A stretch of DNA of 61,464 nucleotides from Candidatus Margulisiibacteriota bacterium (GCA_034723395.1 JAYEOW010000046.1:1-61464); one strand, 5' to 3'. Shown: positions 7,898 to 40,995, counted from the stretch's first letter. Program-made: numbers and translations. The notes: generated from the sequence alone by a model not told the origin.

Positions 7898-7904
7898 GGA
7901 GGAG

Positions 7905-9203: not shown

Positions 9204-9216
9204 ATAGAATAATTTA

Positions 9217-10665: not shown

Positions 10666-10693
10666 ATTTTAATTAAGGAGTGGTGAAATTATT

Positions 10694-11818: not shown

Positions 11819-11836
11819 AAAGTTAAAAGGGTAAGT

Positions 11837-12988
11837 ATGAAAAGATATCTATCTGTATTATTAATAGTTTTATTCCTGATGGCTGGGATCGGGTCATTGA
11901 TGCTGGTCCCGCAGGCGCGGGCACAGCTGGTCTATCTGGGAATGTACTGGATCGCCGGTGAAGTTGAGGATCCAGATGGGGTAGGCACCGACGGCAGGCG
12001 GGTAGTATTTTTTAAAGATCCATTGGTTAGTAATAATATCGAAGGGGGCTACGCGGACGATTATGTCGGCCCCACAGGCCTGGCGGGTGTAGCTGACCGC
12101 TTTGTCCTTAACGCGTTCGAAGATTACCGGATGCCGATCGTCCCGGGCAAATATTTTGCGGCGATCGTTAATAGCGACGTTGATAACTATGGGGCAAATC
12201 CAGTTGAGGTAACGGTTACCGGAAGGGGATTTGATATCGCTCCTAATATGGTTTTGGAGCTTAACGCTGGGCCAAATTCACCTTCGCCGCGCGGCGGTCC
12301 GGAGATCGATAATATCCGCTTCGGCAACCGTAAATACCAGGCGGAACTGGTGGCAAAAGGGCAGGAATTTATCGTCTCTTCACAGCCAAAAATATCGGCA
12401 GACGTCCGCTCTGCCATGGGATTGGATACCAGCAAGATATTTATGGTTGTCAACGAAGGGACCGCGAACGCCAAGACTTACACCATCGCTACAGATGCCA
12501 AGGTTAGTGTAGCCGCGGGAACGAGTACAACCCCGACCGAAATTTCTTTTATAAGGGATTTCTTTAACGAAGGTGACTCGCTGCCGGATGGCGAAACAAC
12601 CATTGCCTTTAAGGCGACCAATATATATGGTTCAACTGTGGTTGATTGTACAGTTACCGTAGTTGGCGGCGAAGCACGCTTGATCGGTGTGCCGCTTACT
12701 TACCCGAGCCCATTGCACCTGATGCAGGCTAACTCGGTTATCTTCCAGTATACGCTCAGTAAAGATACCCCGGTCGATATCTTCCTCTTCGATGTATCAG
12801 GACGTATAGCCAAGAAGATCACTTGTTACGCTCGTGACGAAGGCGGATCTGCCGGCGTGAACAAAGTTACCTGGAACCTGATTACCGATCAAGGGCAGAA
12901 AGTAGCTTCCGGGATCTATGTATTCAGCCTGGTCAACCGAGAGAGCGGCAAGCTCCTGGGTAAAGGTAAATTCACCGCGCTGCCGTAA
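11837..12988 (+). CDS. Secreted protein with C-terminal FlgD-Ig/T9SS type A-like sorting domain
   Basis: YPSP...YTL...VDIFLFDVSGR...GVNKVTWN...GQKVASGIYV...KGKFTALP. Confidence 0.8.
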   Translation: MKRYLSVLLIVLFLMAGIGSLMLVPQARAQLVYLGMYWIAGEVEDPDGVGTDGRRVVFFKDPLVSNNIEGGYADDYVGPTGLAGVADRFVLNAFEDYRMPIVPGKYFAAIVNSDVDNYGANPVEVTVTGRGFDIAPNMVLELNAGPNSPSPRGGPEIDNIRFGNRKYQAELVAKGQEFIVSSQPKISADVRSAMGLDTSKIFMVVNEGTANAKTYTIATDAKVSVAAGTSTTPTEISFIRDFFNEGDSLPDGETTIAFKATNIYGSTVVDCTVTVVGGEARLIGVPLTYPSPLHLMQANSVIFQYTLSKDTPVDIFLFDVSGRIAKKITCYARDEGGSAGVNKVTWNLITDQGQKVASGIYVFSLVNRESGKLLGKGKFTALP

Positions 12989-13253: not shown

Positions 13254-13496
13254 ATGAGAGAAAAGAAGAAGATATTTGTAAGGACTTTAAGAAAATATCA
13301 AACTAAAACAGAAGAAATACTCTGGGGACTATTAAGAAATCGGAAGTTTATGGGATTAAAGTTTAGAAGGCAGCACGTTATTGAAGGATTTAAAGAAAAT
13401 AAGAAATTTGTTCTTAAAAAGTTAAGGCAATTTATCGATAAACATATTGTCCCTCTCCCTATGGGAGAGGGTAGATCGCCGGGAGTTAACAATTGA
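13254..13496 (+). pseudogene. Internally deleted DUF559 (Vsr-like endonuclease) gene
   Basis: LRKYQTKTEEILWGLLRNRKFMGLKFRRQHVIEGF jumps straight to the last helix; the DF..IEVDG..H core is missing and the tail PLPMGEG is read from a hairpin at 13451-13471. Confidence 0.8.
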
Positions 13497-15396: not shown

Positions 15397-17307
15397 TTAA
15401 TAGCCTTTATTGAAATCCAGCAGGTTGTTAACCAGCACTCCAACAGGCGCGCTGCGATAAAGCATTTCCACAGCTTCAGCCCTGGTCAACTTTCTGCTTG
15501 GCTCAAACGGTTTACCTTTTAGATAGAGGAGCATCCCGGCTTTCTTGGCGCCGGCAATGATCGGGGCTGCCCAGTGTTTGGCTTTTACATCCGCAAATGC
15601 TTCACTGGTATAAGGGATCTCTTTTACTCCGCCAAAACGGGCGATCATGGTCAACCCTTCCGCCCGGGTAACGTTAGCCGAAGGCTTAAATGTGCCGTCC
15701 GGGTAACCTTTTACGATCTTATTCTTGGCCGCCAGGTTGACATACTTAGCGGCCCAGTGTTTAAGCGGCACATCATTGAAAACCTTTTTCTTAGCTGCTG
15801 GAACATTTTTATCTCCGCTAACTTGTGTCCTGACCAGCAGGGTAGAGAGCTCGGCGCGGGTAATGTTCCCTTCGGGCTTAAAGCTCCCGTCAGGATAACC
15901 TTTGATCAATCCTAAGGTGCCGATATAGCCGACTTGTTGTGACGCCCAATACTTCTTGGCTACGTCTGGATAGGTGATCAAGCGGAGGATCCTTGCTTTA
16001 TCGGTATCAATAAGCTTATTGTTCTTATCAAATCCCGCGACACTGATCCCGTTCTTGCCGACTTTAAGCGATACCTTGGTCTGGAATTCGCCGCGCGGTG
16101 AAAGCCTGACCTTGATCCCGTTAACTTTTACGCTTACGATCGAAGGATCGACCGCGATACCGCTAACGGTTTCTACCAACTTGGTCGTTATTAATTTATC
16201 CGGTTTAACGATCAGTTTGTCCCTGTCGGTTACCGGAGCTATACCATAAGATAATGAAAAGAAGTGGTTATCAACCCCGGGGGCCCCGGCAAACTGGTGG
16301 TAAGCGTAATCAAAGCGAAAATCGCCGTAGTACACGCCGACGCCGCCGGTCATGTTATTCTCGGTCTGGCCGACCCCGACCATCTCCTGGTCGATACCGG
16401 CGCGGATGGCGATCAGGTCGAGCGGCTTCCACTCCAGGCCGATGTGGAATAGGGTCGGGATATTACTGGAACGGCTGACCTCATAATCCATATCGGTCAA
16501 TAATTTTATCCGGTGCGGTCCGATCTTTCTCCATGCCTTCCCGGTTTCAGGGCCAACTAAGTCAAAACCAGCACCCAGCTTTAAAACAGCAGGATATGAT
16601 TCTTCCCATCCAGAATCGTAATGTAATTTACCGCCCATCGCAAAGGGGAGGGCGTTTTGTAAATTAGCGCCTAAAGAAATCCAGGGATGCGGTTTGCCCT
16701 GGATACCAAGATCAACTTCGGTGCCGGCCGCATTCCCTCCGGTAATATGGTCCCCGGTCAGGTTTACGGAATAGAGCTTTAAGTTCGCGCCAAAGTTTGC
16801 TTTTTTAAGGTTTGGAAGGCGGTCGTTAACGAAATTAAAGACTGGATAGTCGAGGATCCTCTTTAATTTATCACCGTAGCTGAGAATCATTAAATTGTTG
16901 TAGTAGCTCATCGCGTCGGTAGTGAGATCAACCGTATAGATCGGATCATCAGGATCGGAACCAGCTTCAATTGTAGTAGGGAGCGCGCCGGTGATCGATG
17001 AGCCGACGTAGGCAAGGCCGACATTCCCGTATTGGGTCGGATATAGTCCCGAAAAGGATAGATAATTGAATTCTTCGAGCAATTTACCGGACATTGATGT
17101 AACCTGCCAGCGGGTCGGGTTTGCCAGGCCGGCAGGATTTAAGAATACAGACCCGACGTCATCTGCCAAACCGACGAATGCTTTACCCATTCCTAATGGG
17201 CGGGCGCCTGTGGAGATGCGGATGGGGTCGGGAGCGGCTTGCGCGAACACCGCGCTAGAACAAAAAACAAATAACGTTATTAATACTAAATATTTTTTTA
17301 ATGCCAT
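15397..17307 (-). CDS. PorV/PorQ-like outer-membrane beta-barrel + Ig-like domain + three SLH domains
   Basis: GARPLGMGKAFVGLADD..SVFLNPAGL; barrel end FDYAY...HFFSLSYG; SLH motifs GYPDGSFKPEGNITRAE, GYPDGTFKPSANVTRAE and FEPSRKLTRAE. Confidence 0.88.
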   Translation of the reverse strand: MALKKYLVLITLFVFCSSAVFAQAAPDPIRISTGARPLGMGKAFVGLADDVGSVFLNPAGLANPTRWQVTSMSGKLLEEFNYLSFSGLYPTQYGNVGLAYVGSSITGALPTTIEAGSDPDDPIYTVDLTTDAMSYYNNLMILSYGDKLKRILDYPVFNFVNDRLPNLKKANFGANLKLYSVNLTGDHITGGNAAGTEVDLGIQGKPHPWISLGANLQNALPFAMGGKLHYDSGWEESYPAVLKLGAGFDLVGPETGKAWRKIGPHRIKLLTDMDYEVSRSSNIPTLFHIGLEWKPLDLIAIRAGIDQEMVGVGQTENNMTGGVGVYYGDFRFDYAYHQFAGAPGVDNHFFSLSYGIAPVTDRDKLIVKPDKLITTKLVETVSGIAVDPSIVSVKVNGIKVRLSPRGEFQTKVSLKVGKNGISVAGFDKNNKLIDTDKARILRLITYPDVAKKYWASQQVGYIGTLGLIKGYPDGSFKPEGNITRAELSTLLVRTQVSGDKNVPAAKKKVFNDVPLKHWAAKYVNLAAKNKIVKGYPDGTFKPSANVTRAEGLTMIARFGGVKEIPYTSEAFADVKAKHWAAPIIAGAKKAGMLLYLKGKPFEPSRKLTRAEAVEMLYRSAPVGVLVNNLLDFNKGY

Positions 17308-19769
17308 GGGACAACCATTATTTTTACTATGCCGATCTTCTTTTTCTCGGTGTTGCTTATTATTGTTCCCAATACCATACCCGCCGGCACTTGATGACCG
17401 GTAAAAGTCCGTCCGTTCCAGGTAAGGGTATTATATCCCGCGTGAACATCAACATTATCGAATTTATGGACCATTCTTCCACCCATCGTTACTATCGGCA
17501 GGTCAATATTATCATCCTTATCGATATTAATTTGGATATTAACCGGTCCTTTATTGGGATTCCAGGGAGCAGGGTAAGCCAGGCCTCTTCCTCCAGAGAT
17601 AGCGGATTTACTTCCCTGTGGATCTATTCTATAAGCCCCGCCTTTAACCACGTAACCACCGGTCAGATTTTCAACCCTGACATCTCTGCTGCCTGTTGCC
17701 GCATTGGAATCGATGTCGATATTGGCGCGTAATTGAGTGGAACTTAAAAATGTTACGCTATTTATGGTTATCCCTGTAGGTGGATAAAAGATAATCGTTG
17801 CCCCATCCTCAAAGTTACTCCCATAGACAATTACATTTTTATCTTGATTCCCCTGGAATCCGACAGCATCCCTTAATGCTGTTATGGTCGGTGTTGCCGC
17901 TCCGGCTTCCATAACATTCAGGTAAAGGTTGTTCTCGGCTGATGTCGCCGCTCCGCCATCGGTATTCCTGATGATGATTGCCCGCGGGCCGGTGTGCGCG
18001 TTGGCTCCTACGTCAATATTTATAGTTAGGCTTGTGGAACTATTTAGGGTGACCGAATTAATCGTGATCCCGTCGGTTTCAAAAGTTGCGGTGATCCCGG
18101 TATGAAATTCTGTCCCGGTAACATCCACATCTACGCTCGTGGCGCCGATAGTAACATCGGTAGGGGCGATCAGGGTAATTGTTGGATTGGGTACGGTAAC
18201 AGACAGCACCGTAAAGGTATTTGGGGCGCTGGCTCCGCCATCAGGATTGGTAACGGTTATTTCGTGCTTGCCTGTGGCAGCACTAGTTGCTACAACGATG
18301 TCGCAAGTTATTTCCAAAGCACTGTTCCAGGAGACATTATCAACCGTGATCCCGGAATCAAATGATACCGCGCTATTTGTTATCCCGTTTTGGAAATTTG
18401 TTCCGCCTATTATTAGACCACTGATCGTAGCTCCCTGAACCCCACTGGGAGGAGTCAAGGTATTGATAGTTGGTTTTTCGGTAATTGTGAAACTACTGTA
18501 GTTATAAATTGTTCCATCCGTGTTGGCAACATCTACATCCTCATCCCCAAGCTGGGCGGTATCGGAGACGGTTATATTTACGGTAAGTTGCGTTGAGCTG
18601 TTGCGTGTAACAGAATTTACTGTAACTCCAGTAGCTAAGAAGTCAACATTACTTGGCCCCCAAGAACCGATCTGGAAATTTGTCCCGGTTATAGTCACAT
18701 CCCCGGTAAATCCGCGAGGTGCTTGCGACTGGGTAGGTCGGGCAGTTTGTACTACCGAAGTGACGGTCATCGGAGCGATATTCCCCAAAATAATCCCGGA
18801 GCCGCCTTTACCGACCGCAAAGCGATTGTCTTCATCAAGAAAATAAAGGTCATTTACTTTAGTGGAGGAAGCTTCAATGGTGTATGTATATGTAAAGCTT
18901 GATCCGCCATCACTGGTTCCGATGATCTTTCCCTTGCCGGAAGAATCTTCCTGCCCGCCGATTTCACCTACGCTCGCCGAAGCAAAGTGAACGCCGTAAT
19001 AATCTCCGGTTACTGCTCCGGAGAAGGTTTGTGCTTCCCAGGATGAACCGCTATCAGTAGTTTTGAGACAGGTATAAGCAGCGCCAACTGCGTAACCCGT
19101 GCTTGAAGTAGGGAAATTGACTCCGCGTAAATCATAGGGTGTAACACCAATACCTTGTCGAGTCCAGTTATCGCCGCCGTCCGTTGACTTATAAATCATT
19201 CCGGATGCGCCGACAATGTAGAAAGTGTTGGCGTCTACAGAATCTAAGCCATTTATGCTGGAAGTGCCTGGCTCTTTTGAAGGTGGATTCCATGCCCCTC
19301 CCGCGTTTGAGGTGTAACGAGTCCCGTAAGTGGCGGGGACGGTATTTAATGTTCCTGTAATCACGCCGTTGTTCGCGCTGCCAAATTTAATCGCGTGGAT
19401 ATTACTGAAACCGGCAGGCGTTTTGTCGGTCCACGTACTTCCCCAATCGGCAGAAACGAATATCTCTCCAGCGGAAGTGCCTATCCAGATATTGCTTCCA
19501 AATATGGAAACAGTATCAGCGCCATCCGTGGCCGCCATTCCAGCAGGAGTACTTGTTTGGGTCCAGTTTGCCCCATAATCATTGGAGATCAGTATAGTAC
19601 AGTCGTCTCCAACCGCACAAAGCGTTGTCATGCCGGTTGTAGAAATACCATCAATAGCGTTCAAGTCGTATGTGGTGCTTTCCTGAGAAGTCCACGCCCC
19701 AAAGGCTGAGGCGGTGAGGGTAACTATGAAGATGAGCGTTAATATATATTTCGTCGCTCTCATTATCAT
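17298..19769 (-). CDS. Secreted YCF48/BNR beta-propeller + four IPT/TIG-like repeats + FlgD-Ig/T9SS-like CTD
   Basis: Asp-box repeats (S.DYGANW, STDGGDNW, TTDSGSSW); repeats TGTNFQ...GITVNSVT..SST.L; C-terminal YPAPWNP...GYNTLTWNG...KIMVV. Confidence 0.85.
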   Translation of the reverse strand: MIMRATKYILTLIFIVTLTASAFGAWTSQESTTYDLNAIDGISTTGMTTLCAVGDDCTILISNDYGANWTQTSTPAGMAATDGADTVSIFGSNIWIGTSAGEIFVSADWGSTWTDKTPAGFSNIHAIKFGSANNGVITGTLNTVPATYGTRYTSNAGGAWNPPSKEPGTSSINGLDSVDANTFYIVGASGMIYKSTDGGDNWTRQGIGVTPYDLRGVNFPTSSTGYAVGAAYTCLKTTDSGSSWEAQTFSGAVTGDYYGVHFASASVGEIGGQEDSSGKGKIIGTSDGGSSFTYTYTIEASSTKVNDLYFLDEDNRFAVGKGGSGIILGNIAPMTVTSVVQTARPTQSQAPRGFTGDVTITGTNFQIGSWGPSNVDFLATGVTVNSVTRNSSTQLTVNITVSDTAQLGDEDVDVANTDGTIYNYSSFTITEKPTINTLTPPSGVQGATISGLIIGGTNFQNGITNSAVSFDSGITVDNVSWNSALEITCDIVVATSAATGKHEITVTNPDGGASAPNTFTVLSVTVPNPTITLIAPTDVTIGATSVDVDVTGTEFHTGITATFETDGITINSVTLNSSTSLTINIDVGANAHTGPRAIIIRNTDGGAATSAENNLYLNVMEAGAATPTITALRDAVGFQGNQDKNVIVYGSNFEDGATIIFYPPTGITINSVTFLSSTQLRANIDIDSNAATGSRDVRVENLTGGYVVKGGAYRIDPQGSKSAISGGRGLAYPAPWNPNKGPVNIQINIDKDDNIDLPIVTMGGRMVHKFDNVDVHAGYNTLTWNGRTFTGHQVPAGMVLGTIISNTEKKKIGIVKIMVVPWH

Positions 19770-19826: not shown

Positions 19827-20407
19827 ACCCCTTCTGTCCCTCGACTCTGGTTCGACTCGGGAACTTCGTTCCCTCGCTCACCATTCGCTCGGGACATCCC
19901 TGCCTGCCGGCAGGCAGGTTCCCCTTATTAAGGGGAAGAGAGTGAGGTAATTGATGTTTCTTTGTTAATTTTTTCTACAACTTGGTTAATGTCCGAAAAT
20001 ATTTCATTGTTTGTAAATCTTAAAACCTTGATTCCTATACTTTCAAATATATACTGACGTTCTTTGTCATATATTTTTTGATCTTCTTCTAAGTGATATC
20101 CACCATCAACCTCTATCGCTGTTTTCAAATCAGGAGAATAAAAATCTATTATAAATCCTCCTATGCTGTATTGCCTGCGGAATTTGTATCCGTTGATTTT
20201 ACGTTTTCTAATTCTATCCCAAAGTAATTTTTCTGCTTCAGTCATGCTATGCCGCAAGCGCCTTCTTTTTCCTAAATCACATTTTCGATTATATAACCTT
20301 GTCATATTATTATACTATCTCCCCCTTCATAAGGGGGAGATAAAGAGGGGGTTGTTATACTCAAAACCTTCCTTTCCTTCATAAGGGGGAGATAAAGAGG
20401 GGGTTGT
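19827..20407 (-). mobile_element. Hairpin-bounded DUF559 element
   Basis: A DUF559 gene between GC-rich REP-like hairpins; the right end is duplicated with a 52-bp period (20324, 20376); a homologous empty copy lies at 15179-15393. Mobility is inferred. Confidence 0.6.
19928..20305 (-). CDS. DUF559 endonuclease-domain protein (Vsr-like)
   Basis: RRLRHSMTEAEKLLW...KFRRQYSIGGFIIDFY...IEVDGGYH...YDKER...GIKVLRFTNNE. Confidence 0.93.
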   Translation of the reverse strand: MTRLYNRKCDLGKRRRLRHSMTEAEKLLWDRIRKRKINGYKFRRQYSIGGFIIDFYSPDLKTAIEVDGGYHLEEDQKIYDKERQYIFESIGIKVLRFTNNEIFSDINQVVEKINKETSITSLSSP

Positions 20408-20421: not shown

Positions 20422-22506
20422 TTATTCACTTGAAATCATCCCAATGCTCTGTACCTTAACCTGTGGGACTACTTCGTTGTACGAAAGGACCGCGATGTCG
20501 GGATAGCTTCTTTCAATAAAACGCTTAAAGTGGGGCCGCAGCCTGGGCGAACAGAGGATCACCGGATTAAGTTTCATCTTCTTGAAATTCCGCATATGCC
20601 CAGAAATTTGAACAAGAATTTTTTCTCCAACATTCGGATCGACCGCCAAGAACGATCCGTATTCCGACTGGTGGATCGCCCCGGTTAATGTTTCTTCTAG
20701 CGCCGGATCGATGGTAACGACAGTTATCACGCCCTCTTTGTCGGTATAATTTTCACAGATCTGGCGGGCGAGGGATTGTCTTACATATTCGGCCAGGATA
20801 TTAATATCGCGCGAAAGGTGGGCGTAATCGGCTAACCTTTCCAGGATCGTCGAAAGGTCGCGGATAGAAACCCTTTCCCGCACCATTAATTGAAGGACTT
20901 TATGGACCTGTCCCAAAGATAAGAGGTCGGGGATAAGCTCGCGGACAATCGCGGCGTTTGTGTTTTTTACCAGCTCGATAAGCGACTGCACGTTCTGCCG
21001 GGTCATGATCTCGTCCGCGTACCGTTTGATCACGTCCGAAAAATGCTGCGCGATAACTTCGACCGGAGGTTTGGCGGCGATCCCCAGTTTTTGGAGGGTA
21101 GGGAGCGATTCGTCCGGCACCCAGGTTGCAGGGTCGCCCGACGACGGATCTTTGGATTCGATCCCATTCATCTTTTTGGCTTTTACCTGCGCGAGCGGCA
21201 GATCGACCAGGTGATGTCCCATCCTTATCTCTCCGGCGGCGACCTTGGTCCCCCTTATTTCGATAATGTACTGGTCGGGGAGGAGACTAAGGTCGTCCAT
21301 TACCCTGACCCCGGGGATAACAAAACCGAGCTCCTGCCCAATGTTGTAACGGATAAGCGTTATCCGTTCGAGCAGCGCTCCCTTTTGCGACGGATCGATC
21401 ATCGGGATCAAATTCCTTCCCGCTTTGAGCGATAAAGGGTCAAGCCCCAGGGTCCCGAGAATACTTTCTGGTTTCTTTAAGACATCTTTGGCCGAAACTT
21501 CTTCGGTAACCGCGCCTGCCTCTTCCTTGGCAGTCTGCGCGCGCATTAAGACCAGCGCTAGCACTCCCGACATGGACGCTAGGGATAGAAAAGGGACGGT
21601 TGGGATCCCGGGGATCAGCGCGAAAACGCCGAGAATAAGGCAGACAAATGCGAATGCCCGGGGTTGGGCAAAGACCTGGCTGGCTACGTCAGTGCCTAAG
21701 CTCATCTCTGAAGCGGATTTTGTGATTACCAAACCGGTCCCGATCGAGATCAAAAGGGCGGTTACCTGGGCGATCAAGCCGGCGCCGATCGTTAACAGCG
21801 CGTAAGTTGAAAGGGCTTCCATGATCCCCATTCCACCTTGAAGCCAGCCGACTAAGATTCCGCCAATAATATTTACTAATACGATAATGATACCGGCGAT
21901 CGAATCTCCGCGGACAAACTTATTAGAACCGTCCATCGATCCGAAAAATGTCGCTTCGCGTTCGATCTTCCGGCGCCGGCCGCGCGCTTCGGTGGCGTCA
22001 ATTAATCCGGCATTCAGGTCGGCATCGATCGACATCTGTTTTCCAGGCATGGCGTCTAATGTAAAGCGGGCCGCGACTTCGGCGACCCTTTCCGAACCTT
22101 TGGTGATAACGACAAAGTTGACGATCGTGATGATTATAAAAATAATTGCTCCGACAACATAATTACCGCCAACCACAAAGGTACCGAATGCGTTTACTAC
22201 ATCTCCGGCGTCGGCCTGCGTTAAGATCAACCGGGAGGCGGCGATGTTAATTGATAGCCGGAAGACGGTGATGATCAATAAGACCGACGGGAAAGAGGCA
22301 AACTCAAGCGGTTCCTTTAAATACATCGCGACTAAAAGGATCACTAAAGAAAAAGCGAGGCTTAAAGTGATCAGCATGTCCAGCATGAAGGTGGGGAGGG
22401 GGACGAGCATCAAGGCGATGATTGCAATCAGAAATGTGCCGACTGCGAAGTCGCTCACCGAGAACAGGTTTTTCAGGTTTTTTAGATCAAAAATCGGCGC
22501 CGCCAT
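20422..22506 (-). CDS. flhA: Flagellar/type III export gate protein FlhA
   Basis: FHIPEP signature RVAEVAARFTLDAMPGKQMSIDADL; FFGSMDGSNKFVRGD; 694 aa. Confidence 0.96.
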   Translation of the reverse strand: MAAPIFDLKNLKNLFSVSDFAVGTFLIAIIALMLVPLPTFMLDMLITLSLAFSLVILLVAMYLKEPLEFASFPSVLLIITVFRLSINIAASRLILTQADAGDVVNAFGTFVVGGNYVVGAIIFIIITIVNFVVITKGSERVAEVAARFTLDAMPGKQMSIDADLNAGLIDATEARGRRRKIEREATFFGSMDGSNKFVRGDSIAGIIIVLVNIIGGILVGWLQGGMGIMEALSTYALLTIGAGLIAQVTALLISIGTGLVITKSASEMSLGTDVASQVFAQPRAFAFVCLILGVFALIPGIPTVPFLSLASMSGVLALVLMRAQTAKEEAGAVTEEVSAKDVLKKPESILGTLGLDPLSLKAGRNLIPMIDPSQKGALLERITLIRYNIGQELGFVIPGVRVMDDLSLLPDQYIIEIRGTKVAAGEIRMGHHLVDLPLAQVKAKKMNGIESKDPSSGDPATWVPDESLPTLQKLGIAAKPPVEVIAQHFSDVIKRYADEIMTRQNVQSLIELVKNTNAAIVRELIPDLLSLGQVHKVLQLMVRERVSIRDLSTILERLADYAHLSRDINILAEYVRQSLARQICENYTDKEGVITVVTIDPALEETLTGAIHQSEYGSFLAVDPNVGEKILVQISGHMRNFKKMKLNPVILCSPRLRPHFKRFIERSYPDIAVLSYNEVVPQVKVQSIGMISSE

Positions 22507-22523
22507 TACTTTGGATTATACCT

Positions 22524-23627
22524 CTACCTTGGTTTAAGGGCAATAGAAGCTTTTTTGCGCGCTTCACGATCGCGTTTGATCTTATATATGTAAGCCAAAA
22601 CCTCAGCAACCGCCTGATAAAGATCGCGCGGCACTTCGCGGTTGACCCGGGTGGTCCGATAGATCGAACGGGCGAGCGGTTCGTTTTCGACAATACTAAT
22701 TTCATGCTCTTCGGCGATCCGCCGGATCTGCTCGGCGATCTTCCGTTCGCCTTTGGCGAGCAGGAGCGGAGCTTTCATTGTCTTGGTATTGTATTTTAGT
22801 GCTACCGCGATATGGGTTGGGTTGGTAACGACGACGTCTGCCTGAGGGACCGCCGACATCATCCGCTGCTGGGCGACCTGCCGCTGGAGATCGCGCATCC
22901 TCTGTTTTACCATCGGATCTCCCTCCAGCCGTTTATATTCCTCTTTTACCTCTTGCTTGGTCATTTTTAAATTCTTCATATATTCCCAGCGGCGGTACAT
23001 ATAATCCAGGATCGCTACCGCAATATAAAACATGCCGACCCGGATGGCGATCTTATAGGCTATCGAACCGCCGAGGACGATCGCGTCCCAGGGCTGCGCC
23101 TCGATCAGGACGATGATGAAAGGAAGTTCATCTTTTCCCACTGTCCAGGAGATATAAAAAACTACTCCGATCTTTATCAATGATTTTAACAGTTCGACAA
23201 AGCCTTGAAGCCCGAACATTTTTTTGAATCCCTGCAAAGGATTTAATTTATCGATTTTTGGAGAAAGGGGATCGGCCGAAAAGACAAAACCGGTCTGGAA
23301 CGCCTCGGCGATAAGGGTTGAGATAAAGGCGATCCCAAAGATGGGGAGCACGGTTAAGGCGATTGCCCGCAAAGCGATCAGCAGGATGTAGCCGGCAAAG
23401 GCAACATTAAAGTTCCTTGCTTCAGGAATATAGTTTAATATAACCCGCGCCGCCTCGGTCAGGTTCCCCCACATGAATTCCCCAAGATATTTAAAGAGGA
23501 AATAGGAGAGGAGCAAAACAAAGGCCACCGTGATCTCACGGCTCTTTGCGATCTGCCCTTTTTCGCGCGCCTCTCTTAATCGATGCGGCGTCGGATCTTC
23601 GGTCTTATCTCCACCCTGTTCGCCCAT
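22524..23627 (-). CDS. flhB: Export switch protein FlhB
   Basis: KTEDPTPHRLREAREKGQ; MTKQEVKEEYK..EGDP; NPTH autocleavage motif. Confidence 0.96.
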   Translation of the reverse strand: MGEQGGDKTEDPTPHRLREAREKGQIAKSREITVAFVLLLSYFLFKYLGEFMWGNLTEAARVILNYIPEARNFNVAFAGYILLIALRAIALTVLPIFGIAFISTLIAEAFQTGFVFSADPLSPKIDKLNPLQGFKKMFGLQGFVELLKSLIKIGVVFYISWTVGKDELPFIIVLIEAQPWDAIVLGGSIAYKIAIRVGMFYIAVAILDYMYRRWEYMKNLKMTKQEVKEEYKRLEGDPMVKQRMRDLQRQVAQQRMMSAVPQADVVVTNPTHIAVALKYNTKTMKAPLLLAKGERKIAEQIRRIAEEHEISIVENEPLARSIYRTTRVNREVPRDLYQAVAEVLAYIYKIKRDREARKKASIALKPR

Positions 23628-23661
23628 TTAACGCTCCTTGTCTCGAGCTCTGTCGAGAGAC

Positions 23662-24435
23662 TTACTTTATGGCTGCTGCCATCAGCGCCAGCTGTTCGGT
23701 CATATATTCTAACAGCCTGTTAATGTATTTTATAATAAAAGGGAGACACATCAAAAATCCTACGATACCGAGAGAAGGTTTGACCTGGAAACCGAGCATA
23801 AAGACGTTTACCTGCGGGGCGACCCGGGAGACGATCCCGAAGGTGAAGTCAGAAATAAAGATCAAAAGGACCACCGGGATAGCCAGTTTAATGGCAGTTA
23901 CCCAGAGGGCCGATCCGAGCCCGATCATCTGCATTGCCAGATTAGGAGAGGCAAGGTTGGCAAATTTACCCACGGGCAGGGAGGTAAAGCTCTGGTGCAA
24001 TGCCGAAAGGACCAGGTGGTGGCCGTTGGCGGTAATAAAAACAATGATCGCGGTAAAAAACGCGAGCCTTCCGATTACCGAGATGACCGCCCCGAAAACC
24101 GGGTCGAGCGCGGTCGCGACCGATAGCCCCATCTGCATGTCCATGATCTCTCCAGCCGACTGGACCGCGATAAAAATTACGTTGCAGATAAACCCGATAA
24201 CAAAACCGATTGCCACTTCGAACACCAGCGCGAGGATAAAGAAGGTCATTGTATCCGGCAAGGTTTTATTGATCGGGGTAACAAACCATAGGACGAGCGA
24301 AAACCAGACTGCAAAGGCGGTTTTGGCATAAAAGGGGACACTGCGCGAGTTAAAGATCGGGGCTTGCAAGAAAACTCCCGCGATCCGTCCGATGATCAGA
24401 AGGAAGACAATTAGTTGTTCAAGAGAGATGATCAT
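23662..24435 (-). CDS. fliR: Export apparatus protein FliR
   Basis: AGEIMDMQMGL..A...DP; SRVAPQVNVF; the ATG at 24435 overlaps the fliQ TGA. Confidence 0.94.
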   Translation of the reverse strand: MIISLEQLIVFLLIIGRIAGVFLQAPIFNSRSVPFYAKTAFAVWFSLVLWFVTPINKTLPDTMTFFILALVFEVAIGFVIGFICNVIFIAVQSAGEIMDMQMGLSVATALDPVFGAVISVIGRLAFFTAIIVFITANGHHLVLSALHQSFTSLPVGKFANLASPNLAMQMIGLGSALWVTAIKLAIPVVLLIFISDFTFGIVSRVAPQVNVFMLGFQVKPSLGIVGFLMCLPFIIKYINRLLEYMTEQLALMAAAIK

Positions 24436-24701
24436 CTCGCCATCGTCGGGATGGTGCTCCACAGCGTGGTTGTGAAGTCAACCATCATGGAGATGATCCA
24501 GGGGGAAGTGAAGGCGACCATTAAGAGGACGGCAATAACTTTGGGGACAAAGGTCAAGGTTTGTTCCTGGATTTGCGTGACCGCCTGGAATAAGGAGATC
24601 ATAAAACCGACCAGCAGTCCCACGCCCACGACTGGCAGCGAGACCATTAATAGGGTGGTAATTCCCTGGTACATTACTTGTACGGCAAAATCTTGGCTCA
24701 T
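24432..24701 (-). CDS. fliQ: Export apparatus protein FliQ
   Basis: SLFQAVTQIQEQTLTFVPK. Confidence 0.96.
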   Translation of the reverse strand: MSQDFAVQVMYQGITTLLMVSLPVVGVGLLVGFMISLFQAVTQIQEQTLTFVPKVIAVLLMVAFTSPWIISMMVDFTTTLWSTIPTMAR

Positions 24702-24705
24702 TTCC

Positions 24706-25449
24706 TCACCTAAAGCTCATTAGGAGCCCTCGTGATATAAGGTTCCATCCATCGACCAGGACGAATAATAGTACTTTAAACGGGAGAGAGACCATGACCG
24801 GTGATAACATGAACATGCCGAGCGATAACAGGATATTGGCGACGGTCAGGTCGATCATAATAAACGGGATAAAGAGGAGAAACCCGATCTGGAAAGCGGT
24901 TTTAAGCTCAGAGATCATAAACGACGGGATCAAAACATAGATCGGGATATCTTCTGCTTTCTTGGGCGCTTCGATCCGCGAAAACTGGATAAAAAGGGCG
25001 AGATCTTTTTCGCGGGTCTGCTTGATCATAAATTTAGAGATCGGTTTTAATCCGCGCTCAAAAGCTTTTTCCTGGGAAATTTTCCCCTTGTTATAAGGGA
25101 CCACCGCTTTTTCGTTAACCTCTTTCCAGACCGGGGTCATAATAAAGACGGTCATAAAAAGGGCCAATCCGACCACGACCATATTTGGCGGGACCTGCTG
25201 GGTGCCGATTGCCGTCCGGGCAAGGGCAAACACAATAATGATCCTTAAAAATGAGGTGACCGATATCAGGAAAAATGGGACCAGCGAGATAACCGCCATC
25301 GAAAGCACTAATTGGATACTGTTGCTGAATTGTGGAGAGGCCATTATATCCCGCATATTGATCGTTGCCGTGAGGGGGCGAGCCTGTGCAAAAACGGCGG
25401 ACTGGACCAACAGAAAAGCCATCCAGGAAAAAAGATTTCGCTTATTCAT
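24706..25449 (-). CDS. fliP: Export apparatus protein FliP
   Basis: TSFLRIIIV...QQVPPN; SELKTAFQIGF; SLPFKVLLFVLVDGW. Confidence 0.96.
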   Translation of the reverse strand: MNKRNLFSWMAFLLVQSAVFAQARPLTATINMRDIMASPQFSNSIQLVLSMAVISLVPFFLISVTSFLRIIIVFALARTAIGTQQVPPNMVVVGLALFMTVFIMTPVWKEVNEKAVVPYNKGKISQEKAFERGLKPISKFMIKQTREKDLALFIQFSRIEAPKKAEDIPIYVLIPSFMISELKTAFQIGFLLFIPFIMIDLTVANILLSLGMFMLSPVMVSLPFKVLLFVLVDGWNLISRGLLMSFR

Positions 25450-25771
25450 TGATGGTTAAGCTTTCTTCTTCGATCTTATCTATCTTAACAATGCTCTGTT
25501 TGCCAACCGCGACCAGCCAGGCGGATTTACCGACTTTTAATATGTACGCGCCGACTTGCGGTTCGAGATAGACCCGGTCGATGACTTTTATATATCTGCC
25601 GAAAGCGTTGGTCTTTAACCTGGGGAGAAGATACTTGCCAATCAAATAGATAAAAGCCAGGACGATAAGCAGGGAGAAAAATACCTGCATAATATATCCG
25701 AAGGTGATTACCGGTGTAGACTCAAAGACCAAGGCCTCCTGGCTTGCCCCGAGCGGAGTCGAGGGGGTCAT
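25442..25771 (-). CDS. fliO: FliO/FliZ-like protein
   Basis: One TM helix followed by IKVIDRVYL...ILKVG...LVAVG; located between fliN and fliP. Confidence 0.8.
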   Translation of the reverse strand: MTPSTPLGASQEALVFESTPVITFGYIMQVFFSLLIVLAFIYLIGKYLLPRLKTNAFGRYIKVIDRVYLEPQVGAYILKVGKSAWLVAVGKQSIVKIDKIEEESLTINE

Positions 25772-26058
25772 CTCATCACCACGTTAGTAATGCGCAGACC
25801 GTAAGAGTCGTCGATGGCGACGACCTCGCCCTGAGCTACTAATTGCCCTCCAACTTTAAGATCGAGCGGTTCGCCAGCGAGGCGGTCGAGCTCAACGATC
25901 GAACCTTCCGAAAGATCGAGGATCTCTTTTAATGTTAATTCGGTCTGGCCGAGCTCTACCGTTGCCTTGACCGGAATATTACCTAAAGTCCTTTGTTCGA
26001 TCTTTTCACCTTTTTCTCCTTCACTAAACTCGGGAAATTTGACATTTCTTACTTCCAT
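25768..26058 (-). CDS. fliN: C-ring protein FliN
   Basis: IPVKATVELG...ILDL.EGSIVELDRLAGEPLD...GEVVAID..YGLRI. Confidence 0.95.
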   Translation of the reverse strand: MEVRNVKFPEFSEGEKGEKIEQRTLGNIPVKATVELGQTELTLKEILDLSEGSIVELDRLAGEPLDLKVGGQLVAQGEVVAIDDSYGLRITNVVMR

Positions 26059-26061
26059 TTA

Positions 26062-27384
26062 TTATTCCTCCTTTTCTTCATCCTCCGCGCTTTGCGCTTC
26101 GGAGGATAAATCTTCTTCTGGAAACTCTTCGTCAGGGAAATCTTCTTCCGAGAAGTCTTCCTCTTCCTCGGGTAATTCTTCGCTTTCCTCTTCTTCCGTT
26201 GCCTCTTCTTCCGGGAACTCTTCCTCCTCCGCCTCTTGGGCTTCGGAGGACATGTCCTCAGGGAAGCTCTCTTCTTCGGTAAATTCTTCCTCCTCCGCGC
26301 CTTGCGCGGCGGACAAGTCCTCTGCTGTTTCTTCCTCTTCCACCTCTTCCTCAACTGTTGGAGAGAGCTCTTCAGTTTCTTCTTCTTCAAGCTCCGGTTT
26401 GGGGATCGATATCTCCGGCCGCTCTTCAAAGCCGACAATGCGAGCGGCATATTTTTTATTCTTTGTCCCAGGCTGGGCAAAACTTTTTAAGTTTTCTCCA
26501 ACTGTAAATGAAATCGGAGATTCGATACTCGTCTCTAAAGAGACTACGTCGCCGATCTCGAGCTGATCGATATCATTGGTTGTAAGCGATGTTTCCCCCA
26601 AAGCGATCGAGGCGCCGGCCATGATTTTCGAAAGGAGCGAGCCGGGGAGGCGGGCGAAGTTAAGCGGCTTTGCGTAAACTATTTCTTTGTACTGCGCAAT
26701 CAGTTTTTTCAGCATTCCTCCCGGATAGGCAAAAGTGATTTTTCCAACCGGATTATCAGCTAAGGCGATCTCCGCGTTAAAACTGGCTATGGTGAGGTTT
26801 GGATTGATGCTTGAATCGAGCATAATATCAGGGGAGCTGGTGATATTAAAAACCGGATTTTTTATTACGTTCTCGTACGCGGAGGAAAATTTTGGTAAAT
26901 ACTCAGTCATAGTTGTCGTAAATACCCTGTTTTCCGAATCGGTTAACCCCCGATTAAGTGGTTCCAGGTCCCGGTTGCCCAACGCGTAATTGATAATCGA
27001 ATTGGCCTGGGCGAGATCGAAGAAGATGTGTACCGGGTCGTGTTCGTTTTTAACTTTGATCTTTCCCTGGACTACCGCGCTGGTCATTGTTCTCAGGAAA
27101 TTCAGGTAGGTTGTCTGTTCGACTGAAACGGTAAAAAGTTCAACCGATAAGCCGAGATCGATTTTTAGCCTTTTTAAAAACTCCTTTGTAAAATTGTAGT
27201 GGATAAAAAGGAATAGATTGAGTTCTTCTTTGGAAAGGCGGTCAAACCCGTAAAGGCCGGTCTTTACCTTCTTAACCAGGACCCTCGGCGGTTTGTAAAC
27301 CGTCCAGTCCCCGATCGCCGGCGCGAATTTAAGCGTCCGCTTTTGTGGAGCAATCTCAGGTTTGCTTGCCTGTTTTTCCACCAT
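26062..27384 (-). CDS. fliM: Divergent FliM with a long acidic C-terminal tail
   Basis: DRLSKEEL, SVEQTTY..F, R.LTDSE middle domain and SpoA domain (LEIGDVV.L); about 110 aa Glu-rich tail; upstream of fliN. Confidence 0.8.
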   Translation of the reverse strand: MVEKQASKPEIAPQKRTLKFAPAIGDWTVYKPPRVLVKKVKTGLYGFDRLSKEELNLFLFIHYNFTKEFLKRLKIDLGLSVELFTVSVEQTTYLNFLRTMTSAVVQGKIKVKNEHDPVHIFFDLAQANSIINYALGNRDLEPLNRGLTDSENRVFTTTMTEYLPKFSSAYENVIKNPVFNITSSPDIMLDSSINPNLTIASFNAEIALADNPVGKITFAYPGGMLKKLIAQYKEIVYAKPLNFARLPGSLLSKIMAGASIALGETSLTTNDIDQLEIGDVVSLETSIESPISFTVGENLKSFAQPGTKNKKYAARIVGFEERPEISIPKPELEEEETEELSPTVEEEVEEEETAEDLSAAQGAEEEEFTEEESFPEDMSSEAQEAEEEEFPEEEATEEEESEELPEEEEDFSEEDFPDEEFPEEDLSSEAQSAEDEEKEE

Positions 27385-27420
27385 TACCTCAATCCATCTA
27401 TTTTATTAGAATAGATTTCT

Positions 27421-28236
27421 TTAGCTTATTTTATTGATGAACGTTGAGATCATGTCGGATGCTAATCGAACCATGGTCAGGTTCCCTTCCATCGCTCTTT
27501 GCAGCTCGAGGGCATCCAGCGATTCACCTAGATAGAATACGTTAGATTGCTCGAGTTGTCCAGCGCGAACTGATCCCACCGCGCCGCCGGGGGCTTGGGC
27601 GGTGGCTGGAGAACCCGAGGCCGGGGTTTCGGCAAAACTGGTCCCTTGCGCCTGGGCTAATCCGTTCGGATTTTCAAAATAGGTTAGCGCGATCTGGTAT
27701 CCGGTAGAAGTATAAGTTGTTCCGCCGTCCGAAGAGTATTCAAGGGTGCCATCCGCCGTCCACTGATAATCGGATTTATTTCCGGAAGGAAGGTTTTGGA
27801 TTGGAACTAAACTTCCGGAGCTGTTCAGTCCGTAAACTTGCATGTTGTTCGAAAGCAGACTGCCGTTTAGGTCGATCTCAAAGTTTCCAGCGCGACCGTA
27901 TAGATAACTGTCGCCGCCATCCGGGGAGAAGATAAAAAGACCCCGGCCGGAAATTGCCAGGTCGGCGCTGGTTCCCGAGGTGTATTCACCCGAAGAGAAA
28001 TCGAGCGAGACATTTGATAATGCCATTCCCTGTCCGAACTGTTTCGGGTTCGTTCCACCGCTCGTATTGGTGGCGGCGGTCCCCTGGTTTAAGATCCTTT
28101 CAAATATAGTCTGGAAAGAGACATCGATCCTTTTATAACCGGTGACATTCATCCCGGCGATGTTTGCTGAAGTAGCCTGCAGTGCGGTATTGTAAGCAGA
28201 AATCGCGTTTTTTGCCTGGCTCATAATGTTAAGCAT
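27421..28236 (-). CDS. Short flagellar hook/basal-body protein (FlgE/FlgG family)
   Basis: NIAGMNVTGYK; GGTNPKQFGQG; DLAISGRGLF; YGRAGNF; F.NP.GL; GQLEQSNV; 271 aa. Confidence 0.88.
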   Translation of the reverse strand: MLNIMSQAKNAISAYNTALQATSANIAGMNVTGYKRIDVSFQTIFERILNQGTAATNTSGGTNPKQFGQGMALSNVSLDFSSGEYTSGTSADLAISGRGLFIFSPDGGDSYLYGRAGNFEIDLNGSLLSNNMQVYGLNSSGSLVPIQNLPSGNKSDYQWTADGTLEYSSDGGTTYTSTGYQIALTYFENPNGLAQAQGTSFAETPASGSPATAQAPGGAVGSVRAGQLEQSNVFYLGESLDALELQRAMEGNLTMVRLASDMISTFINKIS

Positions 28237-28960
28237 GGTGTTCCTCCTTTATTCTCTCGATCTTTATCTCGGAAAGATTGACGTTGGACCTTTTTAAGGC
28301 GATTTCGAGCTCCTTGCGCAGAGCCTCGAGTTGTTTTCTGATCTCTTCGGGAGCCTGGATCTGGATCGATACCATTCCGGATTTGGCAATTAAAGTTAGG
28401 ATAATTTCTCCAAGGTCGTCTGGTTTAAGCCCGACCGTCAGTTCAGTTTTACCTTTTCCCTTGACCAATCTTACTTGGGCCAGAATTTGATCGACTAAAT
28501 ACTGGAGATCAAGTTTGCTGAGCAATTTACCTTCCATCTGCGCTTGAAAGAAGAGGGGGCTTGCTTCAAGGTTCGGAGCCAGCCATCCGGTTTTTGCTAA
28601 AATTTCCTGAAGCATCATTTCCGGAGGCTTGGGGACAAAATTATCGGATAACCTGAATCCACCAGATCGCGCCAAGTGATTTTCTCTTTGATAGTTCTCA
28701 GAATAATTCTGTTCGGCCGGGGAGATTTCTACTTCATAGAGAAAATCACTTCTTCCATAGCTCTCGGTCTCCGGGGTGAAGGCGGGATAAGAAAAAAGCG
28801 AACTGAATTCGAATTGGGCCCAGGGAGAAAACATGAGGGCGATCCTTTTTTGCTCTTCATCGAGATAATTTTGGAAGGATTGGTCGGGCGGGTTTTGGGC
28901 AGAGGAATCCTGCAACAGGCCGGCGTCAGGGGCATGAATTTGAGAAAGTTGGATCTCCAC
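28229..28960 (-). CDS. fliK: Hook-length control protein FliK-like
   Basis: C-terminal Flg_hook domain LKPDDLGEIILTL...LEALRKELEIAL; GTG start with SD AAGGAGG. Confidence 0.82.
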   Translation of the reverse strand: MEIQLSQIHAPDAGLLQDSSAQNPPDQSFQNYLDEEQKRIALMFSPWAQFEFSSLFSYPAFTPETESYGRSDFLYEVEISPAEQNYSENYQRENHLARSGGFRLSDNFVPKPPEMMLQEILAKTGWLAPNLEASPLFFQAQMEGKLLSKLDLQYLVDQILAQVRLVKGKGKTELTVGLKPDDLGEIILTLIAKSGMVSIQIQAPEEIRKQLEALRKELEIALKRSNVNLSEIKIERIKEEHHA

Positions 28961-29271: not shown

Positions 29272-29652
29272 TTAATGCCTAAGGAAAAGTTTCTTGGCAA
29301 GAATATAACCTATCGAAATAGTAAAAACTGGAATTATCAGATATCTTAAGCCAATTTCCATAAAATAGCGACCATAAGACATTTGCGAAAAAGGAATTAA
29401 AAAAGCAAAGTCAAGAAGCCAGTTGACCAGGGGCCATATCAAACCTAAATCAAGACCTTCTTTAAAATATTCTTTATCAACTTTGTTGAAATATAGGACA
29501 GTACAAATTGCACCTACGATTGCGCTTTCGACAAGCATAATCGTCTTAAAGAAAACAAGGTCGTTGTTCATCAGGCCCATCAATGGGATGGCTGTAACAT
29601 ATGGGATTATCCAGATAATGATAGCGTAACCGATTATTTTTGGCAGTCTCAT
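29272..29652 (-). CDS. Small four-TM membrane protein
   Basis: Four hydrophobic helices; SD AAGGAGG before the ATG at 29652 (MRLPK). Confidence 0.75.
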   Translation of the reverse strand: MRLPKIIGYAIIIWIIPYVTAIPLMGLMNNDLVFFKTIMLVESAIVGAICTVLYFNKVDKEYFKEGLDLGLIWPLVNWLLDFAFLIPFSQMSYGRYFMEIGLRYLIIPVFTISIGYILAKKLFLRH

Positions 29653-29786
29653 GTGAATTTCCTCCTTTTGATTGCATTCTCCCACCACCCACTTCCTCTG
29701 TCAATGGTGAGAAAAACGTGTTTTCCAGTGGGTGCGTATTTATTAGAATGGGGTTGGGGAAAGGAGGAGGGATTATTCTATCAAGG

Positions 29787-30134
29787 TCATTTTTGGGAAT
29801 TTATAAGACCGGAGATCATTTTTGATAACTCTTCAAGCCGTTCGTAATATGCGGCTTTTTGTTTTTTGCGGATCAGATCCATATCCAGTAAAACGTCTAA
29901 TATCGCAACACATTCGAAAACCGATCCCCTGGCTATGATATAGAAATGGCGCTTGTCTGCCTTTGAATATCGGCCGGCCCCTTCGGCAATATTTAGCGGG
30001 ATTGATAGCGTGGCCCTTTGTAGTTGGTCAATGAGTCGAGGATGGGCATACTTTAAGCTGGAAATCAACTCCGAAAGCTCTTTTGTGAGTTGCTTGGCTT
30101 TTTTATAAACATCAAACTTTTCAAAATCAAACAT
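29787..30134 (-). CDS. Four helix bundle protein
   Basis: FEKFDVYKKA...DQLQRATLSIPLNIAEG.G...HFYIIARGSVFEC. Confidence 0.93.
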   Translation of the reverse strand: MFDFEKFDVYKKAKQLTKELSELISSLKYAHPRLIDQLQRATLSIPLNIAEGAGRYSKADKRHFYIIARGSVFECVAILDVLLDMDLIRKKQKAAYYERLEELSKMISGLINSQK

Positions 30135-40222: not shown

Positions 40223-40735
40223 ATGAGAATTGAAGAACTCCGGACGATCAATAAAATACTAATCACTTTTTTCTTCCTCTTTGTGCTTTGGCTCCTTTTT
40301 ACCTTTAGCTTCGATCCTTTTTCTCTGCTGCTCGGAGGAATATTCTCCCTGATAATTTCGATGGCTACTTACGATCTTTTTATCGAAAAGGGAGAGGAGA
40401 TCCAAAAAGGGATCCTTCCCCGGTTCGAGTATTTCCTGATCTATTTTTTTGTAGTGCTCTGGGAGATATATCTGGGGAGTTTTAATGTGGTTTACCGGGT
40501 GTTAACGAGGAAGATAAATCCCGGAGTAGTAAAGATCAGGACCCGCTTAAAATCAAAGTTTGCCCGGGTGCTACTGGCCAACTCTATTACTTTAACTCCC
40601 GGAACGGTTACCATAGATCTGCAGGAAGATTGTTTATATGTCCATTGGCTGGCGGTTAAGACCGATAACGCCCATCAAGCAGCGCGTGTGATAAAAGGGA
40701 ATTACGAAGCGCAGCTTAAGAGGATATTCTATTGA
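40223..40735 (+). CDS. mnhE: Mrp/Mnh antiporter subunit E (MbhA-like)
   Basis: INPGVV...LANSITLTPGT...LYVHW. Confidence 0.92.
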   Translation: MRIEELRTINKILITFFFLFVLWLLFTFSFDPFSLLLGGIFSLIISMATYDLFIEKGEEIQKGILPRFEYFLIYFFVVLWEIYLGSFNVVYRVLTRKINPGVVKIRTRLKSKFARVLLANSITLTPGTVTIDLQEDCLYVHWLAVKTDNAHQAARVIKGNYEAQLKRIFY

Positions 40736-40995
40736 ATCCATTTTTGGTCATAACCTATATTTTATCGGTCACCTCTTTTTTGTGTTTGATCCGCATTGTC
40801 AGGGGACCGACCCATTTTGACCGGCTGATCGGGCTTAATCTGATGGTTTTAAATATTACGGTCATTATTGCTGCCCAAGCGGTCTATTATCAGCGCTACG
40901 TTTATTTTGACGTTGCCCTGGTCTATGCGATTTTGGGCTATATTTCGGTGATCGCTATTTCAAAATATTTAACGGGAAGGGAACTTCACAAGTGA
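40732..40995 (+). CDS. mnhF: Mrp/Mnh subunit F (MbhB-like)
   Basis: RIVRGPT..DR; DVALVYA. Confidence 0.9.
   Translation: MNPFLVITYILSVTSFLCLIRIVRGPTHFDRLIGLNLMVLNITVIIAAQAVYYQRYVYFDVALVYAILGYISVIAISKYLTGRELHK

Follow-up and report, generated by a model that had tools for sequence, protein, structure and literature searches.

Reduced flagellar export systems are already known from Lysobacter and Buchnera. According to the available text of the two reports, Lysobacter enzymogenes OH11, a free-living, non-flagellated soil bacterium, keeps flagellar export and hook-basal-body genes, and its authors propose that other proteins are exported by a system resembling the type III secretion system of flagella (FT3SS) (PMC7688988); Buchnera aphidicola carries basal bodies without a filament, retains the export machinery, and has a proposed transport role (PMC8109811). 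Here, we describe a ten-gene flagellar-type operon at positions 20422–28960 of a 61,464-nucleotide stretch of DNA from a Candidatus Margulisiibacteriota bacterium (GCA_034723395.1 JAYEOW010000046.1:1-61464; "the window" hereafter). The operon appears to be the core, conserved in Candidatus Saganbacteria (WOR-1) and inherited vertically, of a type III export apparatus of the flagellar kind, and to have been trimmed and rewired. Judging from the encoded sequences, the FlhA pocket at which FliS, FlgN, and FliT dock together with the flagellin, junction, and cap proteins has been lost lineage-wide, and the CheY-binding motif of FliM has been replaced by a conserved lineage-specific peptide. We tentatively favor, at close to an even chance, a reduced, flagellum-derived export or appendage machine over a chemotactically steered swimming flagellum.

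The two described systems differ from this one in the depth and setting of the reduction. In the parts of the reports available, OH11 retains most flagellar genes, flgD among them, and what it mainly lacks is a functional fliC (PMC7688988); it is a gammaproteobacterium with a recent loss within its genus, whereas the reduction in Saganbacteria is conserved over a class-level lineage and accompanied by altered FlhA and FliM proteins. Buchnera lives as an obligate endosymbiont and has a genome of 600 kb, whereas Saganbacteria are described, in the available text, from groundwater and sediment (PMC6349859). Export in Saganbacteria is predicted from the genes. The ten genes of the operon, with their scores against family models, are:

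28229..28960, minus strand: FliK-like hook-length control and substrate-switch protein, 243 amino acids (aa), short; Pfam Flg_hook 36.2 bits (cut-off 29.8) over residues 165–235
27421..28236, minus strand: FlgE/FlgG-family axial protein, 271 aa; NCBIfam TIGR03506 (FlgEFG_subfam) 120.8 bits (cut-off 70.25)
26062..27384, minus strand: FliM, divergent, 440 aa; Pfam FliM 29.2 bits, FliMN_C 47.8 bits
25768..26058, minus strand: FliN, 96 aa, SpoA domain only; Pfam FliMN_C 87.6 bits, NCBIfam fliN 94.5 (cut-off 84.05)
25442..25771, minus strand: FliO, gate assembly factor, 109 aa; Pfam FliO 31 bits (cut-off 22)
24706..25449, minus strand: FliP, export-gate subunit; Pfam 264.9 bits, NCBIfam fliP 258.2 (cut-off 217.45)
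24432..24701, minus strand: FliQ, export-gate subunit; Pfam 93.9 bits, NCBIfam fliQ 100.9 (cut-off 88.9)
23662..24462, minus strand: FliR, export-gate subunit; Pfam 199.5 bits, NCBIfam fliR 174.4 (cut-off 168.6)
22524..23627, minus strand: FlhB, switch protein with the NPTH autocleavage motif; Pfam 422.5 bits, NCBIfam flhB 409.7 (cut-off 349.25)
20422..22506, minus strand: FlhA, 694 aa; Pfam FHIPEP 817.1 bits over the whole length, NCBIfam FlhA 770.8 (cut-off 772.1)

Family models confirm each gene in the order fliK-flgE/G-fliM-fliN-fliO-fliP-fliQ-fliR-flhB-flhA that a preliminary description had read from the DNA. All ten frames are intact on the minus strand from 28960 to 20422, and their intergenic distances of only -31 to +36 bases bear out the tight coupling described. 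The same description had spoken of intact export motifs. NPTH is indeed present in the FlhB translation, but FHIPEP is an acronym for the family rather than a sequence motif, and what can be said of FlhA is that it matches that family over its full length.

We compared the operon with 80 loci listed from genome contigs, i.e., 66 of flagellar type and 14 of SctV type (L008, L014, L016, L018, L024, L027, L028, L032, L038, L039, L043, L044, L064, and L078), all of them distant from the window, with FlhA proteins at most 49% identical over the whole length. Of the flagellar loci, 55 were typed by NCBIfam and 11 by tree position, six of the latter also having flagellar neighbors. The gene order follows that of Firmicutes fla operons, as previously stated: the Bacillota-type fla/che operons of Paenibacillus (L011), Clostridia (L015), and Atribacterota (L017) share the same fliK-to-flhA order, with fliN or fliY. 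L011 also has a short hook protein without a D2 domain, and the FlhA proteins of these operons group with that of the window in the best tree found. The Bacillota-type operon has FlgD, a 'Flagellar_put' gene, FlbD with or without MotA/MotB, FliL, a FliY with a CheC domain, CheY, and FlhF/FlhG, none of which are in the window; its FliM proteins score 203–242 bits against Pfam FliM, compared to 29 in the window, and its FlhA keeps a chaperone-docking site that the window's FlhA does not.

The loss of accessory genes was assessed with hidden Markov models (HMMs) that we built from Pfam-verified FlgD, FlbD, MotA, MotB, FliL, CheY, FlhF, and FlhG proteins of the reference loci and searched against every stop-to-stop open reading frame (ORF) of at least 30 aa in the window. 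None matched (best E-values 0.41–1.9). Among the 66 flagellar-type loci, the same models found FlhF in 50, FlhG in 39, FliL in 32, FlgD in 27, MotA and MotB in 25 each, and FlbD in 14; these seven families matched in none of the 14 SctV-type loci. No flagellar locus with full 10-kb flanks lacked all seven (0/42), and the three loci that did lack them were on short contigs. In the layout expected from six Pfam-scanned reference loci, flgE is preceded by FlgD and a 'Flagellar_put' gene, and fliM by FliL and FlbD, the latter with or without MotA/MotB; a FliY with a CheC domain, CheY, and, in five of the six, FlhF and FlhG after flhA complete it. The claim that flgD, fliL, motAB, and flhF/flhG are gone from this locus therefore stands. 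Family scans of the 61-kb window also found no MS-ring FliF, rotor FliG, FliH/I/J, FliE, or FlgB/C and no flagellin, junction, or cap proteins, and no other flagellar, stator, or chemotaxis families turned up among the ORFs scanned.

The FliM protein departs strongly from its family. Its N-terminus is followed by the FliM middle domain and then a FliN-like domain, and the last 120 aa or so form an acidic tail; its Pfam FliM score of 29.2 bits compares with 203–242 in five references, and solved FliM structures in the PDB match it only at an E-value of ~0.006. An N-terminal peptide of the LSQxEIDxLL type, which we take to be the binding site for phosphorylated CheY, occurs in 31 of 33 FliM proteins of the compared loci and in all five aligned references. 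This peptide is absent from the window's FliM, which instead shares a different N-terminal peptide with five further Saganbacteria orthologs, in agreement with the earlier suggestion that FliM lacks its chemotaxis input. Across 99 full-length orthologs, conservation is highest in residues 1–47 (mean consensus frequency 0.79, compared to 0.58–0.67 in the folded domains), which suggests that the N-terminus has been re-purposed rather than abandoned. The acidic character of the tail is shared as well, with Asp and Glu making up a fraction of 0.20–0.64 of the last 80 residues in full-length orthologs; in four truncated rows it is 0.06–0.15. The accompanying FliN lacks a CheC-like phosphatase domain and is not followed by cheY, whereas the Paenibacillus, Atribacterota, and Clostridia references encode a FliY with a CheC domain in this place.

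A further candidate anomaly in FliM was discarded. The GGXG motif reads G-N in the window as opposed to G-G, but it reads G-S in two of 34 references (L005 and L074) and G-G in one Saganbacteria ortholog. Separately, opposite the part of fliM that encodes the acidic tail, the antisense strand contains a serine-rich ORF of 199 aa (25967–26566, plus strand); it is most likely an artifact of GAA-rich low-complexity coding sequence and not a gene.

The second departure concerns the docking of late substrates. As described in the available text of a published study, a hydrophobic dimple in the C-terminal domain of FlhA (D456, F459, and T490 in Salmonella) docks FlgN, FliS, and FliT with filament-type substrates (PMC8166844). 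We mapped FlhA positions through the E. coli K-12 protein (692 aa). The residue at the Phe-459 position is aromatic in all 66 flagellar references (58 F and 8 Y) and in none of the best 120 Saganbacteria FlhA proteins (53 T, 50 S, 12 N, 4 G, and 1 A). The Thr-490 position is threonine in 66 of 66 references, and in the same 120 proteins it is E in 62, D in 29, N in 11, T in 7, Q in 6, L in 2, and S in 1; the window's FlhA has S and Q at the two positions. In addition, the tyrosine of the GYXLI motif is Y or F in 60 of 66 references and R in all 120 Saganbacteria proteins. The dimple residues of SctV-type loci also differ from the flagellar ones.

The gate proteins are highly conserved in the lineage, and Saganbacteria FlhA keeps the ion-channel and engine residues R147, R154, D158, K203, D208, and R391, as well as 96 of 100 universal FlhA positions. 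It retains 11–13 of 27 flagellum-specific positions, compared to a minimum of 16 and a median of 25 among the references and 0–8 among SctV proteins, and shares only 2 of 20 SctV-specific positions.

Family-model and tree results indicate a system of flagellar type, not an injectisome, that probably descends from ordinary terrabacterial flagella. FliP, FliQ, FliR, and FlhB score above the flagellar equivalog cut-offs of NCBIfam and FlhA falls 1.3 bits short (770.8 vs. 772.1), while the injectisome models all remain below theirs: SctV at 661 (692.25), SctR at 198.9 (208.6), SctS at 69 (76.5), SctT at 121.4 (163.05), and SctU at 335 (358). On the FlhA model, the flagellar proteins among 69 loci score 796–950 bits and the SctV proteins 548–691. 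Trees of 87 rows (LG+G4) and 42 rows (LG+C20) both recover SctV as one clade (100*) that excludes the window's FlhA; both of these quick trees place Saganbacteria FlhA on the flagellar side near the base, with a stem of 0.56–0.66 changes per column.

That basal position next to the SctV branch is one of three observations that would suit a non-flagellar type III secretion system or a direct intermediate. The others are that the accessory genes absent from the 14 SctV loci are absent here too and that some source names call the orthologs members of the EscV/YscV/HrcV family. Injectisomes indeed resemble this system in their homologous gate, in having no FlgD, FliL, MotA/B, or FlhF/G nearby, and in their non-flagellar dimple residues. 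We nevertheless regard such an identity as hardly credible, since it is contradicted by the HMM scores of all five gate proteins and by the low share of SctV-specific residues. Besides FliO, the locus encodes a protein of the FlgE family and has FliM and FliN as separate proteins, and no secretin, needle, or SctD/J/K homolog turned up among the scanned ORFs of the window. The basal placement itself vanishes under constraint: when Saganbacteria are grouped with the flagellar FlhA proteins of Bacillota, Chloroflexota, and Actinomycetota, the log-likelihood improves by 14.4 over the free quick tree (p-AU 0.763). We therefore rejected the 'intermediate' position and treat it as long-branch attraction. 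The constrained tree is the best found and points to ordinary terrabacterial flagellar descent, against the expectation that this FlhA would stand apart from ordinary flagella; the sister representative (P0232) resembles Bacillota FlhA clusters.

The lineage was assigned by the source names of the closest homologs in a collection of 5.8 billion proteins. The best 120 FlhA homologs, 77–100% identical to the window's protein, are named, where a source gives a name, Candidatus Saganbacteria, candidate division WOR-1, or Candidatus Margulisbacteria/Margulisiibacteriota, except for two rows given only as '[bacterium]'. For the axial protein, 120 or more orthologs are 60–92% identical, and FliM has 107 matches at 24–100%, which carry the same lineage names wherever named with two exceptions, i.e., one '[bacterium]' row and one partial match named Candidatus Sulfotelmatobacter. 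Two named genomes share the gene order (A3H38_06760 for the axial protein, 06765 for FliM, and 06800 for FlhA; COT42_05515 and 05520). Some orthologs of FlhA, FliM, and the axial protein are found on contigs of 1.35–1.67 Mb. Taken together, the names and gene orders indicate Candidatus Saganbacteria/WOR-1 as the source and a cluster conserved across the lineage.

A decaying, functionless relic of a lost flagellum might be suspected from the very divergent FliM, with its 29 bits and its marginal match to solved structures. This is very improbable: all ten frames are intact and tightly coupled, homologs of FlhA (77–97% identical), the axial protein (60–92%), and FliM (34–65%) span more than 100 clusters at 90% identity, and the FliM N-terminus is strongly kept.

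The Saganbacteria FlhA is isolated on a long branch. Among 1.84 billion representatives at 50% identity, its best match is 65% identical and the next is a 412-aa fragment at 78%; all later full-length representatives are at most 46% identical. This drop, together with the long stem, would fit a second, specialized paralogous flagellar-type export system that coexists with a canonical flagellar set in the same genome. No second type of FlhA with a Saganbacteria name is found among the best 120 matches; these are all orthologs, so a paralog could not have appeared among them. Overall, we consider a paralogous system improbable.

The axial protein belongs to the FlgE/FlgF/FlgG family and may act either as a hook or as a distal rod. 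Its scores against the FlgG and FlgE equivalogs are both about 124 bits and below the cut-offs; it is colinear with a solved 260-aa FlgG (E-value 9e-16) and aligns with the 272-aa protein at the flgE position of Paenibacillus L011. The D0 and D1 regions and the terminal polymerization segments are kept and columns at the N-terminus as well as the 'SNV' columns of the C-terminus are conserved, while a D2 domain is lacking. The preliminary description had counted a short hook protein among the signs of reduction. The length of 271 aa is correct, but we rejected shortness as an anomaly: a 272-aa protein at the Paenibacillus flgE position indicates that Bacillota-type flagella normally have a short hook protein, and proteins of 253–276 aa from Bacillota and Actinomycetota make up the nearest Atlas clusters. 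The Bacillus subtilis hook protein is likewise of the short type. A long Dc segment of the FlgG type, considered as a sign of a rigid rod, was also rejected, given that the same segment occurs in the true terrabacterial hooks of L015 and L017. The FliK-like protein weakly matches a hook-length control protein of known structure (PDB 2rrl; E-value 0.15). In Salmonella, hook length scales with FliK length; if this relation applies here, the short FliK of 243 aa would imply a short tube.

A plain swimming flagellum steered by chemotaxis is made less likely than it would normally be by three features in combination: a uniquely stripped locus, a re-purposed FliM peptide, and an otherwise well-kept FlhA that has lost its dimple throughout the lineage. 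We envisage that the MS-ring, FliG, the ATPase, and the proximal rod would be encoded elsewhere, and that the machine would build a basal body with a short, length-controlled tube. FliK and FlhB would then switch export to substrates other than chaperoned filament proteins, the result being a flagellum-derived exporter or surface appendage. An exaptation of this kind, with the export gate and C-ring kept and the motor and chemotaxis parts lost, had been suggested beforehand; the stripped locus, FliM, the FlhA dimple, and the conserved gate speak for it, while the short hook and the apartness of FlhA dropped out as arguments.

Several observations weigh against a reduced machine. The operon depends on FliF, FliG, and proximal rod genes and cannot work alone; at least one further flagellar locus is therefore required, which weakens any argument from absence at this one; the missing genes could sit in such a second locus elsewhere in the genome. 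The five gate proteins all score higher on flagellar than on injectisome models, and the constrained tree puts FlhA among ordinary flagella. FliK, the NPTH motif, and a hook-type protein are all kept, as expected of a real flagellum. Two of the 33 reference FliM proteins also lack the N-terminal motif. Loss of the dimple is not unique either: among the 148 nearest representatives at 50% identity, 100 keep both dimple residues, and the other 48 comprise 18 of SctV type and 30 of FlhA type, 16 of which also lack both (P0234, P0273, P0298, P0322, P0323, P0335–P0337, P0340, P0341, P0351, P0353, P0354, P0361, P0375, and P0377). Fourteen of these 16 fall below the FlhA equivalog cut-off, and they may represent other lineages with remodeled flagellar export systems. 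Finally, flagellin is recorded in a sister group, i.e., Margulisbacteria GWE2_39_32, in the available part of a flagellin table (PMC7018530).

Many of the same points would suit an ordinary motile flagellum with its genes distributed among several loci. This operon would then be just the fliK-to-flhA part; FlgD, the stators, FliL, FlhF/G, flagellin, the chaperones, and perhaps che genes would be encoded elsewhere, and the odd FliM and FlhA residues would reflect drift of the lineage alongside co-evolved partners. We place this somewhat short of an even chance. The genes for FliF, FliG, the ATPase, and the rod lie elsewhere in any case, 16 of 66 flagellar loci have no FlhF nearby, FlhA fits among terrabacterial flagella, FliP, FliQ, FliR, and FlhB pass the flagellar cut-offs, and the intact axial protein is conserved along with FliK and FlhB. 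However, such a split would need three separate segments to have moved out of a tightly packed operon, while none of the 42 full-flank flagellar loci is stripped of all seven accessory families, and a chaperone dimple that is invariant in 66 of 66 references is lost throughout the lineage. Published flagellins also speak against the split: among the rare phyla of a survey covering 113,285 of them, Margulisbacteria are listed but, in its available text, not WOR-1 or Saganbacteria, and no WOR-1 or Saganbacteria flagellin occurs in the 31,709 rows (~28%) of its table that were available (PMC7018530). A term search of the available text describing the lineage found no flagella, motility, secretion, chemotaxis, or pili (PMC6349859), and the supplements of PMC11607428 contain no Margulis, Saganbacteria, or WOR-1 rows. 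More broadly, no link of Saganbacteria or WOR-1 to flagella, motility, or type III secretion was found in the literature searched, including part of its supplements.

Two of the reference loci deserve mention in their own right. L021 (Dactylosporangium) and L071 (Chthoniobacter), the source of the two FliM proteins without the CheY-binding-type motif, are otherwise flagellar.

The operon is flanked by genes of other kinds. The fliK gene has a GTG start, an AAGGAGG ribosome-binding site, and a 311-base AT-rich spacer upstream. A candidate promoter (TTGCAC-17-TATAAT) was spotted there by eye; a promoter and terminator scan gave nothing decisive. Beyond the spacer lie a 138-aa membrane ORF (29272–29688) with no family match in Pfam or NCBIfam, a gene for a 23S rRNA intervening-sequence protein (IVP), tRNA-Leu, a Mur ligase gene, and rho. 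Such four-helix-bundle intervening-sequence proteins are encoded twice in the window, at 1849–2277 (plus strand) and, just upstream of the operon, at 29787–30134 (minus strand). Downstream of flhA are a DUF559 gene, a gene for a BNR-repeat protein, and one for an SLH protein. The DUF559 endonuclease-like gene is complete at 19928–20305 (minus strand), directly after flhA, and a truncated fragment matching residues 5–46 lies 6.5 kb away at 13254–13496 (plus strand); the pair may be what is left of a family of mobile or repair nucleases.

SLH-domain proteins, with the BNR-repeat protein beside one of them, are encoded at 15397–17307 and 17298–19769 (both minus strand) and at 56618–58183 (plus strand). 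The one downstream of the operon overlaps the BNR-repeat protein by 10 bases, and another has a weak porin-like match at its N-terminus. These proteins fit the OmpM-type outer-membrane tethering reported for Saganbacteria in the available text of a preprint (10.1101/2021.05.31.446380). At 2738–12988 (plus strand), nine consecutive genes encode signal-peptide proteins of 88–569 aa with almost no family matches; one has glycine-rich repeats of the GVYG type, and the last ends in a domain resembling FlgD_ig and those of the type IX secretion system (T9SS). Beside them, a 196-aa sigma factor (681–1271, minus strand) has sub-threshold best matches to FliA/WhiG and extracytoplasmic function (ECF) factors, and the nine genes may thus form a surface-protein cluster with its own sigma factor. 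A complete Mrp-type multisubunit cation/proton antiporter operon also lies in the window (40223–45513, plus strand), with MnhE, F, and G, MbhD/E-like, MnhB and C, and two D-type subunits; a UPF0182 membrane protein of 920 aa comes after it.

Should the missing genes occur elsewhere in the genome, Saganbacteria would have flagella, unreported in the literature searched, with FliM and FlhA proteins that break near-universal residue rules. A bolder version of the reduced-machine reading, possible although on balance doubtful, is that all Saganbacteria keep a flagellum-derived hook-basal-body machine that no longer exports filaments and has shed its stators and its control by CheY. This machine would act as a protein exporter or a short surface tube, with a new regulatory input peptide in FliM and a redesigned late-substrate docking site in FlhA, and would be an old, independent parallel to the origin of the injectisome that still looks flagellar. 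If this is true, the reduction would be fixed in a deep, free-living, uncultured, class-level sister lineage of Cyanobacteria, compared to one endosymbiont and one non-flagellated genus so far, and two control points of the machine would have changed in specific ways open to testing, namely the input peptide of FliM and the chaperone dimple of FlhA. The lineage would then provide a natural experiment on which flagellar parts export by itself requires, and a living analog of the early steps from flagellum to secretion system.

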